64,000 bases of DNA from Mytilus trossulus (Eukaryota): NCBI RefSeq assembly GCF_036588685.1, contig NC_086383.1:50158001-50222000 (forward strand), given 5' to 3'. The translations under genes were made by a program, and so were the position numbers. The notes beneath the pieces are model-generated. The model ran no database searches and was not told the origin of the DNA. It worked only from the letters and a program-made list of their open reading frames with translations. Shown here one piece after another: positions 1,886 through 53,149 of the stretch (the stretch's first letter is position 1; each line of letters opens with the position of its first letter).

Positions 1886-2476
1886 CTAGTCTCTACTTCT
1901 TCGTGACGAAACTTTTGATCTTTTTATTTTCAATATGGAACGAAGTCGTTGAAGTTTAAGTTTTTTTTTAGACACGATTCCTACTTCATTTTCATTTTCT
2001 TCCAGAAGACTTCCGAATTGGTCACATTCATCGTTGCAATCGCAAGTATTATCCTCGCATGCGTCTTGACAATATGGCATACATACTTCTTTAGCGCATT
2101 CCGATGGTGTAAATCCTTCCATATCATGGCATCCTGCCCGATATAAAGCTTCACCGGCTTCTAATGCTACATCCAGAAGACTTTCGTATCCTTTGCAGGT
2201 ATCTTTGTCTATGTTATCACGTTCGCATAGATAACTATATTCTCCTTTGACGCAACACTGTATGTCTCTTAAAGGTTGGTCTAAGCACCAGGCCAATATG
2301 TTTTCGATCTCTTTAGCACCATCTTCGCCGACAACTTGCTTAGTCATTCCCACGGCCATTTTTCTCAAGAGCGCCTTTTCTTCGTCACCTAGATATTCAG
2401 CAGTACGTTTAAAACTGTACCCATTCACACTCAAGATACAGGCAACCATTGCCAGTGATAAAACTATAAACTTCAT
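1886..2476 (-). CDS. Gene A1: secreted cysteine-rich protein, 196 aa (signal peptide, YSFKR dibasic site, acidic 13-Cys core, basic tail); family unknown
   Basis: Intact ORF with hydrophobic N-terminus MKFIVLSLAMVACILSVNG. Splice acceptor tttatttcAG (2482-2481) lies 4 nt before the ATG, and AATAAA is at 1781-1776. A clear paralogue is at 13413-14417. Confidence 0.92.
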   Translation of the reverse strand: MKFIVLSLAMVACILSVNGYSFKRTAEYLGDEEKALLRKMAVGMTKQVVGEDGAKEIENILAWCLDQPLRDIQCCVKGEYSYLCERDNIDKDTCKGYESLLDVALEAGEALYRAGCHDMEGFTPSECAKEVCMPYCQDACEDNTCDCNDECDQFGSLLEENENEVGIVSKKKLKLQRLRSILKIKRSKVSSRRSRD

Positions 2477-2754
2477 CTTTCTGAAATAAAAAGATATTCA
2501 CATTATGTCTAACATATTTCTTATATCGACCATGTCTACGACCAATCGACGAAGATTCTTAAAACTAAAATGAGTATTACAAAAAATAACGTTATCCAAA
2601 GTAAATTCAATTAGGAGAAATTAAAAAAAAACAAAAAACCTCGAGACCAAACGTGACTACGGAGCTAGCGAAAATCATCTGTCATTTTTAGTCATTTTCC
2701 GAAGAAAAATGTTGGTTACACCTGGTTTTATAGCTAGCTAATCATCACATAATA

Positions 2755-2916
2755 TATAGAGTCTAATATGTTGTCATACAGTCCACTGGACTAGATAGAG
2801 ACCTTCATTTTGTCATACAGTCCACTGGACTAGATAGAGTCCTACATTTTGTCATACAGTCCACTGGACTAGATAGAGTCCTACATGTTGTCATACAGTC
2901 CACTGGACTAGATAGA
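2755..2916. repeat. 39-bp minisatellite x ~4 in the A1 intron
   Basis: tgtcatacagtccactggactagatagagtcctacat units at 2772, 2811, 2850 and 2889. Confidence 0.9.
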
Positions 2917-3367
2917 TTTCAACCAGTTTGAAAGTCGTCAAATCAATGGCATTCTAATAAGTGTAAAATATTTTATAAGCCTTCATTGACGACATATCAG
3001 ATCGAGACCGATTAAATGCTTTAATTTTAATAACCATTTCATATTCCAGACCAATTGGTATTTTTTCCCTTCGAAGATAAAACGCACGTCTGGAGTATCA
3101 AAATAAAAGCCTGGCATAGAAAAAGATAAAATCACAAAAATACGCAACTACATGTACGAGGAAAATTCGAAACGAAAAGTCATTTATCAAATACGAAAAT
3201 CAAAAGCTCAAATACCACAAACGAATGGCAAACAACTCTCATATTCCTGACTTAATTGGTGTTTACACATATAACACTATGACACCTACCTACTCAAGTC
3301 TTCACATGAAATTCAGACATTTTAAACATGTACTCTTGAAATCAATAAGAAATAGAATTCAACTCAC

Positions 3368-49479: not shown

Positions 49480-50995
49480 TGTATAAGTTTACCTTGTAAA
49501 CAACTATAAGGCCACACAAAACAAATAAGGCCAAAATAAATAAACCTAATAGCTTCAATATCATAACACCGATCAAGACCATTCAAAACCACATAGTATA
49601 GACTTACAAACCCAAAGGAAACAAAACCATTAGCATTAGATAGATTTGATAGACATTGAATTCTCAGAAGTTCTCTGGAGTTTTTGAATAGTGAGACTTT
49701 TATTTACGAACAACATCATACTATATTGTGACTTATTGGACGTTATATTCTGTTGATATTTCTATTTGTGTAGTAAACTTGTGTATAATAAATCTTGTTA
49801 AATTTTAAATTGATTTGTGTCTTTTGATGGCTACAATTTAAAAGTGATTTCTGACCGTAAAAGACATTGGAGGCTCGTTAGGGATCTATCTCCCTGTTGA
49901 AGGTGTTTCATTATTGCTAGGAAATGATCTAGCTAGGGAAAGAGTAGTTGCTGAACCAAATGTAACCAGTGAACCGGTTGTGGATGTTAAATCACCGGAA
50001 GATGATGCTGAACTGTATCCAGAGTGTGATGTAACTAGGGCGATGGCTAGAAAACAACACAATAAGGATTTGCAAGAAAATCAGTTTGATTACATGGGAC
50101 TTTCAGACACTTTCCTTGCCAACATTGAAGGTCCCGGTAGCCCATAGAAGGCCGTAGTAAGACCATTTATAACTAACAAGAATGTAATTATGATATGGCC
50201 AGACGTGAACAGCCATTCATTAGAATGAAGCAAATGTGTTGAAGAACAAAATAAAGACCTTGAGGTTCTTCAGCTCCGCAAGAGTGCACAACCACAGGAG
50301 AAAGCAGACAAATGGTTGAATGCTACTACCATCAAGACGGCATTTTATTGAGGAACTGGAACCCCCTGGTGCTATTCTAGAGGAGGAATGGAGAGTGGTA
50401 TACCAAGTGGTGGTGCCTAAAGTCTATAGGCAAGTCTTGCCCATGACACCCACTTGGCTGGCCATTTAGGTATAAGTAAGACCTACCTTATGATCTTGCA
50501 CCATTTCTTCTTGCCCAGACTAAGAAATGATTTCGCAAAATACCGAAATCATGCCATATATGCCAGGTTGTTGGTAAGCCTAACCAGAAAATACCACTTC
50601 TGCCAATTCAGCTTTTGAAGAAAGAACCTATCAGCCGAGTACTCATTGATTGTGTTTAACTTTTATCAAATACTAGTACCAAGACTGGAAATGCGTATTT
50701 ATTGACGACAATGTGTACATCCATTTGCTTTCCTGTGGCTATTCCATTGTGAAATATCAAGACACCAACTATTATTCAAGCTCTTATCAAATTGTTCACC
50801 TTAGTAAGACTTCCTAAGTCTATACAGTCCGACCAGGGTTCAAACTTTATGTCAGTTTATTTCAGCAAGTCGTGTACCAGTTAGGGGTTGCTCAGTATAG
50901 GTCAAGTGCTTATTCGACAAGGGCTGGGATGATGGTGTTCACTTTTTACTTTTTGCGGTCCGAGAGGCTGTTCACGAATCCCTTTGTTTTAGTCT
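49480..50995 (+). mobile_element. Gmr1-like Gypsy remnant: LTR (to 49866), tRNA-Pro-like PBS (49868-49885), gag deleted, end of protease followed directly by decayed integrase
   Basis: ...aagaCA t TGGAGGCTCGTTAGGGAT. Translations LLLGNDLA, AGHLG..KTY, CHICQVVGKPNQ, RVLIDCV and QSDQGSNFMS, with frameshifts. The LTR 5' boundary is uncertain and the LTR is repeated at 63690-64000. Confidence 0.8.
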
Positions 50996-52456
50996 TTTTC
51001 AGGAACCGTTAATTCAGTGGTTGTCATTGTTGATGTGTTACTTTATTGTTTTTCGTTCATTGTTTTGTACATAAATTAGTCCGTTAATTTTCTCGCATGA
51101 ATTGTTTTATATTTGTCATTTCAGGGCCCTTTATAGCGGACTTTGTTCATTGTTAAAGACCGTAAGGGGACCTATAGGGGATAATTTCTGTGCCATTGGG
51201 TGTCATTGGGTCTGTTGTGAAAAGTTGTCTCATTGGCAATCATACCACATATTCCTTTAATATACATTGTGCAAATCCGTTGTGATGAGCCTTGCAGGCA
51301 CCTACCATACAGGTATATAAATGAAAATGTGACCTGCAGGCACCTTCAATAGTATATGGTACAGATCTATGGAGATATTATAGGCCATGGTACATATAAT
51401 TAGCAGTGTGACCTGCAGACTCAAATGATAGGCTATGGTACAGATCTTCAGTGATGTGATATGCAGGAACCTATGGTACAGATAAATTTTGGTGTGACCT
51501 GCAAGCACATTTGATACGGATAAATGTTGGTATGACCTGCAGGCAACTGTAGTATTGTTTATGATTATACGCGTAAGTATATGCAGCACTACTTATTTTA
51601 TAAGTGATGACTGGCAGTAACCGTTCACATAAGCTTTTATTCTCGTGCCCCTGTACTAGTGTAGATTAGTATGCAGATCGGGGCTGGAATTGCCGGGTAG
51701 TTTGAAAACAATCAGATTGCTACGTATATATATATTGCGTCATCCTGAAACATACCTTTTACAATTTAATTCCCATAATTCTGGAACAACTCATCTTCAA
51801 ATTTTCAAATGGACATGGAGATTGTTTTCAGGGGCCAACAAAAGTAATATTACATAGTAAAGATTCTTTAAAGTAAGCTCAAATTATTGCAAAAGTAACC
51901 AAAAAATGTGGGTACTTCGAATTGACAAAGTACATTTTATGAAATATATTTTTTTTAAAGGAGGAATAAAGGATCGGTAAGTACGCCTATCAAATCTGTG
52001 ATAGGGACTGGAGTCTCTAAATATTCATTTGCAAATTAACAATGTACGTTCAACTATATTACAATATGATTTCGGTAACTGAATTAATCGCCGGAAGTCA
52101 CCAGTATTTTTCTTGCATTGATAAAACTTGTTGTCGATCGAGTTATCGTGACATCAAGTTGTTTGAATGCATCGAAAATGTGTTCAACTTTCTCAGAACA
52201 AAACAAACAAAATTAAACATGAACACCAACTTACTTGAGTTTTAGTGCAAAAAATAAACATTAAAATATCACGACCAATTTTGACTGTTTGACCCCCCCC
52301 CCCCTTTCTTTTATTCAGCATGAAAAATTGATACTTATTATGTTTATCCTTTGATTTTTATTGAAAAATATAAATGAGCATGTACATTTAATACATCATG
52401 ATCGAAGTCCATATTCGGTCCACTGGTTGTAAGGAATTTTTGTCCCATAAAGCATT

Positions 52457-53149
52457 TCAATTACTGCTGAATCTTCTGAGTTTTCTTTTCAAGTTTAAAA
52501 ATATTCCGGAATCTCTAGATTTCATGAAAGCTTCATTAATTTTCCCGGCATCCCTCACTGCTTTCTTGTTCAACAGCATATCTGGAGGTGGGGGTGGTGG
52601 GGGTGGCGGGGATGGTGTGGATGGATCTCCACGGGTCCTCAAATTATTTTTCTTTCTCTTTGATACTGGTGACTGCAATGATCGTTCTTTTTCTTCGCTG
52701 CATCCTGTCATCTCTGTGACCTCTGGATCATACAAATACCAAAAAACCTGATCAAAATTGTCCAGAAATTCAGAAGCAAATCTCACCTTTATTCTAATAT
52801 GACAAGAAGGATCGTAAGCTGCATCCTCGTCAAGATCTACACATTCCTTCTTCTCTTCCACCTTATACCAGCCAATAAAAACGAGTGAAAAGCTCGTTCC
52901 TGGAGTACATGTGTCTTCAGGACAAAGGTCATCTACAATATCAATAATGCATTTTATCATGCCAGTTCCAGAAGAGATGTCTTCTTGGGATGGATAATCC
53001 ATTTCAGCACACGAATCTAAGTCATTTTTGAAATCATTATCGCTTTTTCCCAGTATTGACGCTGTTATACTGACAAAATGATCGGCGGGACTCTTAGCAT
53101 AGGTACATCCAAATATGATGCAGAATACGATAGCTAACTTCAACATCAT
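52457..53149 (-). CDS. Gene B2: paralogue of B1, 230 aa
   Basis: Intact ORF about 90% identical to B1, with an in-frame 3-codon insertion in the polyproline tract. Acceptor at 53152-53151. Confidence 0.9.
   Translation of the reverse strand: MMLKLAIVFCIIFGCTYAKSPADHFVSITASILGKSDNDFKNDLDSCAEMDYPSQEDISSGTGMIKCIIDIVDDLCPEDTCTPGTSFSLVFIGWYKVEEKKECVDLDEDAAYDPSCHIRIKVRFASEFLDNFDQVFWYLYDPEVTEMTGCSEEKERSLQSPVSKRKKNNLRTRGDPSTPSPPPPPPPPPDMLLNKKAVRDAGKINEAFMKSRDSGIFLNLKRKLRRFSSN

Follow-up and report, generated by a model that had tools for sequence, protein, structure and literature searches.

What do the small genes clustered in a 64,000-nucleotide stretch of the Mytilus trossulus genome (contig NC_086383.1, positions 50,158,001 to 50,222,000, referred to here as the window) encode, and are they related to each other? 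A preliminary description had singled out two gene pairs, A1/A2 and B1/B2, and assigned them to one unrecognised, clustered and lineage-specific family of secreted, disulfide-rich proteins with a shared helical core and swappable C-terminal modules. We find that A and B are undescribed families of mussel secreted-type precursors; both are real gene families that are clustered, duplicating and apparently restricted to mussels. The explanation that best accounts for the data as a whole, to which we assign a probability of about 0.5, is that their products are secreted as precursors in which an acidic helical core would be the working part and a basic tail would be cleaved after escorting it. That A and B share an ancestor is plausible, and we regard this as an evenly balanced proposition.

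The M. trossulus genome contains at least six A and at least five B genes, and further genome queries added none. The local gene order is B0-A0-A1-A2-B1-B2-B3, with A0 at contig positions 50143418-50144008; A3, A5 and A4 are located 30 Mb off on that contig, and another contig carries a distant B gene (Bx, 26% identical). B1 and B2 lie in a tandem duplication (Table 1), a third unit carrying B3 continues past the window end, and the units of B1-B3 are 95-97% alike. Word-indexed protein searches returned 4 proteins for A1, 6 for B1 and 13 for an A profile, and the named homologs of A and B are all uncharacterised Mytilus proteins. An exhaustive search of 1.84 billion protein representatives with the B core gave five hits, three of them real: P0010, P0037 (the Bx ortholog of M. 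coruscus) and P0038 (a diverged relative). P0039 and P0040 are repeat proteins lacking the cysteine framework and were discarded. As the exhaustive search was made for the B core, the range of A is bounded less tightly, by the word-indexed and profile searches. The local B0-B3 cluster bears out the proposed clustering, and with orthologs in other Mytilus species the families appear to be lineage-specific. In M. galloprovincialis, the accessions of the B0-like and A0-like proteins are consecutive, and the B0/A0 pairing is therefore likely older than the species split. A0-like products occur as split pieces in some protein records, which suggests broken alleles elsewhere. One M. edulis B-family protein (P0027, in the cluster of P0006) is labelled 'coxA' by its source, and nothing that we found supports this label. 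In the open literature, supplements and subscription papers apart, we found no account of these families and no mention of the six gene ids.

A1, B1 and B2 encode a signal-like hydrophobic N-terminus, an acidic core and a basic tail in a single intact coding exon, as had been described, whereas the coding region of A2 is split by a repeat insert. The last 30 residues carry a net charge of +8 to +13 in A and of +4 to +7 in B. In each of the 12 A proteins whose N-terminus is present, the signal is followed by a Lys-Arg pair (KR) (of the 14 listed, 13 have KR, the remaining one being a C-terminal fragment), and candidate convertase sites flank the core in sequence: KR after the A signal, and ERS, KR or RxxR before the tail. 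For all four genes, a TATA-like box, a short non-coding exon and an intron ending close to the ATG can be predicted from sequence. The predicted AG acceptor is located 5' of the ATG, at a distance of 4 nt in A and 1 nt in B, the GT donor 640-1363 nt further 5', and the TATA-like box another 70-108 nt upstream. First-exon sequence is kept among A0-A2 (the first exon and box region of A1 is 79% alike to its A2 counterpart) and, separately, among B0-B3. A0 retains the conserved first-exon sequence but has no TATA box at the A1/A2 position. A TATA-like word near 2730 was ruled out as the A1 promoter, as it lies where a high-copy repeat ends, with the conserved first exon at ∼3370-3475. Read contigs from two runs contained only short, low-depth pieces of A1. 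Myticalin genes likewise have a 5'-untranslated region (UTR)-only exon and an intron directly before the ATG (PMC5577615), and the layout is thus not diagnostic of a family.

The cysteine spacings quoted in the preliminary description are correct. The gaps between mature cysteines are 9, 0, 8, 9, 21, 10, 4, 3, 3, 4, 1 and 3 residues in A1 and 19, 8, 4, 21, 12 and 33 residues in B, and C-x21-C is found in A1, A2 and B. The framework pattern, which was drawn after the fact, is present in 14 of 18 A proteins and in all 15 B-type proteins; of 3582 frames taken from the window and its flanks, no other frame has it. Structure models of A and B, built on 9-10 sequences, are both all-helical with no strands, and place the six framework cysteines at matching helix starts and ends; a helical core of five to six helices is thus predicted. 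Spacing across the predicted helices is near-fixed (C2-C3 is 8, once 11; C4-C5 is 21, once 20) and the spacing of loops varies, and because of this difference we predict disulfides between the neighbors C1-C2, C3-C4 and C5-C6. Two further features held to unite or define the families are not general: a shared DTC motif occurs in A1 only among the 16 longer A proteins listed, and RGD, described with a proline run as the B module, is found in 7 of 15 B-type proteins, with a distant B branch lacking the long proline run. A seventh mature cysteine (residue 150 in B1, and its counterpart in orthologs) is kept by all nine non-Bx proteins of the B clade that were compared, whereas Bx has eight. Judged from this count, one cysteine of the non-Bx B proteins may lack a partner and could join two chains into a dimer.

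Neither family resembles a described protein strongly. Foldseek returned no match for the A and B models at an E-value (E) of 0.001, ESM Atlas gave no usable match, and sequence searches of the PDB returned none below E 0.1. None of 42 Pfam scans of A and B proteins and pieces (some of them repeated) reached a curated cut-off; rows such as PRIMA1 are artefacts of the proline run. VIA-align against 48,161 chains gave best hits usual for helical bundles, with Z 7.7 for A (root-mean-square deviation is 3.4, 90 residues aligned) and Z 4.7 for B (root-mean-square deviation is 5.5, 96 residues aligned), and two entries in common between the top-50 lists.

Are A and B one family? Helix order and cysteine placement agree between the two models, and unguided MAFFT alignments in three modes bring 5, 6 and 5 cysteine columns into register, in line with the proposed alignment of six framework cysteines; the similarity of A1 and B1 themselves is near chance (BLASTP E 0.06). 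Column shuffles reached the real A-B profile score in 1 of 150 and 3 of 150 cases, permutations of non-cysteine columns in 110 of 5000, and the C2-to-C3 stretch is closely alike in the A5 clade and the B clade. On a first B profile, six A5-clade proteins scored 4.6-13.2 bits (at most 5 of 400 shuffles reach this), while the other seven A proteins did not score so. The interleaving of A and B genes is a suggestive sign of kinship.

Several results weigh against a common origin. Profile-profile comparison, the check proposed for this question, was marginal: hhalign aligned A and B at E 0.22, 0.031, 0.12 and 0.037 with a probability of 0.3-1.6%, from shallow profiles (the effective number of sequences is 2-2.8), and deeper profiles left the score no better. 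The residues of the C4-x21-C5 helix give no in-register support: the helix scores -1.02 in register and -0.40 when shifted by two. Block shuffles reached the real score in 18 of 305 cases. With a deeper B profile, the A5 scores went down to -1.7 to 9.2 bits, reversed A sequences reached up to 8.2 and 13.0 bits on the B profiles, equal to the best real scores, and the addition of A to the B profile lowered the score of Bx, which was 33.2 bits, to 11.7 bits. The structure model of B is weak, with a mean predicted local distance difference test score of 52. In a midpoint-rooted A tree, the A genes adjoining B are derived, with A0-A2 nested within the distant A cluster, and no B gene was found in 50 kb read near the deep A branches 30 Mb away.

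The strongest competing explanation is that A and B are unrelated and alike only as acidic, helical, cysteine-rich secreted proteins, an A3-like gene having moved beside the B locus, and we place it somewhat short of even odds. It is favored by the lack of a significant profile match and of any gain from deeper profiles, by the absence of A proteins from the five hits of the exhaustive B-core search and of cross-hits in own-genome searches, by the nesting of A0-A2 and by the generic gene layout. The agreement of the two models, the column-shuffle and permutation nulls and the likeness of the C2-C3 stretch speak against it, and the tree does not decide, since the derived position of the B-adjacent A genes fits relocation and the splitting of one old cluster by an inversion equally well. 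Helix order, cysteine placement and interleaved genes would fit a single family, but its profile matches are marginal, and RGD-polyPro, the proposed swappable module of B, is no conserved module. Should A and B be homologous, they would represent a cysteine scaffold that diverged past sequence recognition within one cluster; as matters stand, they are another group of secreted genes that is restricted to one lineage and has no assigned function.

On comparison with the named mussel peptide families, A and B match none of them. Closest in habit are the Mytilus CRP-I genes, which encode mussel-restricted, clustered, secreted cysteine-rich precursors of unknown function and include pseudogenes (PMC4558851, PMC10138031). 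A and B share with them the apparent mussel restriction, the clustering, conservation of the signal and the pro part, a KR site, a variable core and putative pseudogenes. They differ in having an acidic, predicted-helical core of ∼130 residues in place of a short knottin array, and one coding exon (A1, B1, B2), where CRP-I genes have four exons and an ORF (open reading frame) split by two introns; the CRP-I array C(X3-6)C(X1-7)CC(X3-4)C(X3-5)C is found in 0 of 14 A and 0 of 10 B proteins. With myticalins, mytilins and mytimycins, A and B have in common a signal peptide, a mature part and a C-terminal extension of opposite charge, as well as a first exon, predicted in A and B, with 5'-UTR only (followed, in myticalins, by an intron right before the ATG) (PMC5577615, PMC7168163, PMC8004829). 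The charges are reversed in A and B (acidic core, basic tail), the cores are two to four times longer, and we found no sequence similarity to the three families. Mytilins, myticins and defensins are small cationic peptides with eight cysteines, a cysteine-stabilised (CS)-alpha-beta fold and an anionic extension, whereas the A and B cores are acidic and their models strand-free; a loose C-x3-C...C-x-C pattern occurs in 11 of 14 A proteins. A and B also lack the cysteine-free cationic mature peptide that, with a dibasic site and an anionic extension, characterises myticalins. Mytimycins have a mature peptide ∼54 residues long with 10-16 cysteines and an EF-hand extension (PMC8004829, PMC7168163), and neither an EF-hand pattern (0 of 24 A and B proteins) nor a Pfam EF-hand was detected. 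Insulin, saposin and odorant-binding cysteine patterns were likewise found in 0 of 24 proteins.

Mussel defence peptides are as a rule made from charge-split precursors that contain a dibasic site (PMC5577615, PMC8004829, PMC7168163), and in these families the active part is variable and the pro-part conserved (PMC5577615, PMC4558851). By analogy, A and B precursors are likely a charge mirror image of the known ones. By pairwise counting, which is not site-wise, the whole-gene ratio of nonsynonymous to synonymous substitution rates (dN/dS) is 0.25-0.73 and below 1 in all 16 paralog pairs. Among A0, A1 and A3, the signal and pro part has a dN/dS of 0.11 and the core one of 0.61-0.82; between B0 and B1-B3 the tail (0.28-0.30) is somewhat better conserved than the core (0.44-0.47). 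Four A5 orthologs keep 27-30 of 30 tail residues, and 76-106 of ∼133 core residues.

Since mussel defence precursors pair a variable mature part with a conserved extension of opposite charge, we favor a model in which A and B products, predicted to be secreted as precursors, would be trimmed by a proprotein convertase at the candidate KR, ERS or RxxR sites. The acidic, probably disulfide-stapled helical core would then act in extracellular recognition or ligand binding, and the conserved basic tail would escort this faster-evolving core and probably be cut off. Mucosal or humoral defence or recognition would be the most likely function class, followed by gamete or pheromone signaling. Two observations do not favor this model: no region has a dN/dS above 1, and A tails are no more amphipathic than their own shuffles, 42-394 of 500 of which reach the score. 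Most of the described mussel defence and signaling proteins are small cationic peptides that carry an acidic extension; A and B reverse the charge, are larger and predicted helical, turn over through duplication and disruption, and are tractable candidates for specialists of mussel immunity or gamete recognition.

Cathelicidins release a cationic peptide from a carrier domain. An equivalent arrangement, in which the basic tail of A and B is an active linear cationic peptide freed from an acidic, disulfide-bonded carrier, is in our view unlikely. The tail charges are as expected for such a peptide, some tails of the B clade are amphipathic (1-58 of 500 shuffles reach the score) and the A5 tail is nearly invariant over four species. 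However, A tails are not notably amphipathic, and mussel defence families vary in their active part (PMC5577615, PMC4558851), whereas in A and B the core varies most.

Slightly less probable still is that the B core, and perhaps that of A, is a degenerate soluble cysteine-rich domain (CRD) of the Frizzled/folate receptor/NPC1 type, with a small ligand or a partner protein as its binding target. For P0037, the Pfam Folate_rec match has E 1.1e-4 (22.5 bits, against a cut-off of 29.8), and for its 98% twin P0041 E 8.5e-4 (19.7 bits). P0037 has five PDB rows at E up to 10, each of them a folate receptor (E 0.12-0.15), and the PDB alignment over 67 residues has CC, C-x6-C-x8-C and two tryptophans in register. 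Yet both Pfam matches are below the cut-off, the own-genome copy Bx and the other scanned A and B proteins show no Folate_rec signal, and the B-family profile retrieves no folate receptor from the PDB. A direct hhalign comparison with two mussel Folate_rec regions gave E 0.02-0.39 over 16-23 columns. The published CRD cysteine patterns (CX8CX6C*CX3CX6,7C and CC*CX8CX2,3C*CX3CX6C; PMC4256011) are found in none of the 18 A and none of the 15 B proteins. No folate receptor, NPC1 or Frizzled chain appears in either VIA-align top 50, an absence that is no exclusion. The likeness to these CRDs (PMC4256011) would lie in an extracellular, helical, disulfide-held domain and in the sub-threshold match of distant B proteins; A and B differ in missing the defining cysteine patterns, and B in having no counterpart of the folate receptor C-terminal half.

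JUNO, a receptor of the egg, is related to folate receptors and used in gamete recognition. We consider it improbable that A and B are two arms of one superfamily in mussels, whose soluble, helical members would descend from a folate receptor/Frizzled CRD, be released from basic-tailed precursors and serve in gamete or microbe recognition. A role as structural or mineral-binding secretions (shell, byssus or egg coat), with the acidic core binding cations, is equally improbable: the cores are strongly acidic and the linkers Glu-rich, but the models show a folded helical core, there are no repeats, the EF-hand pattern is absent and duplication and loss are ongoing.

Table 1. Gene features of the window (positions count from the first nucleotide of the window).
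Feature	Position	Strand	Remarks
A1 coding exon	1886..2476	-	Intact ORF, 196 amino acids: signal-like residues 1-19, YSFKR, acidic core with 13 Cys, basic tail
A1 predicted 5'-UTR intron	2481..3367	-	GT at 3367; AG ends 4 nt before ATG
A1 predicted non-coding first exon and box	3368..3475	-	TATAAATA box at 3468-3475
A2 TATA-like box and predicted non-coding first exon	11942..12049	+	Box is TATTTATA
A2 predicted 5'-UTR intron	12050..13408	+	Contains 223-bp stretch 12816-13038
A2 coding region, 5' piece	13413..13678	+	∼89 codons, 60% identity to A1
A2 composite insert	13679..14102 (approx.)	+	Two high-copy repeats
A2 coding region, 3' piece	14103..14417	+	C-x21-C, Cys cluster, basic tail, stop
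Tandem duplication with B1 and B2	39963..56960		39963-45258 versus 51661-56960 at 94.7%
B1 coding exon	40778..41461	-	Intact ORF, 227 amino acids: signal-like residues 1-18, acidic core with 7 Cys, ERS, proline run, basic tail
B1 predicted 5'-UTR intron, non-coding exon and box	41463..42194	-	Intron 41463-42109; CATAAATA box at 42187-42194
B2 coding exon	52457..53149	-	Intact ORF, 230 amino acids, 90% identity to B1
B2 predicted 5'-UTR intron, non-coding exon and box	53151..53874	-	Intron 53151-53789; CATAAATA box

The A2 coding region is broken after codon 89 by ∼420 bp derived from two very high-copy repeats, and its frame, if unspliced, stops at 13829. Within the insert, 13873-14095 is an exact copy of the 223-bp stretch from A2's own intron and adjoins a high-copy repeat of another kind; it could stem from local capture or from template switching at insertion, or from an assembly slip. 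The insert is flanked by GT and AG of matching phase, and therefore represents either a disruption or a young intron; no read contig from the two runs bridges it. A2 forms the longest terminal branch of the A tree (0.54), consistent with relaxed selection.

Repeats and mobile elements surround the genes. Degenerate minisatellite arrays of 38-48 bp units with related sequence are found between the A and B genes (32400-33330, 35400-36050, 37458-37952 and 51455-51543). A retrotransposon on the minus strand (21600-29900) contains gag-, reverse transcriptase-, RNase H- and integrase-like ORFs in pieces between terminal direct repeats that are 95-99.5% alike; from its motifs, we take it to be a BEL/Pao-like element. 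Two ORF pieces at 18997-20789, also on the minus strand, are presumably the endonuclease and C-terminal parts of a long interspersed nuclear element (LINE). In the second A cluster, a LINE-like element with several ORF pieces is located between A3 and A5 (L045:4813-8593, plus strand).

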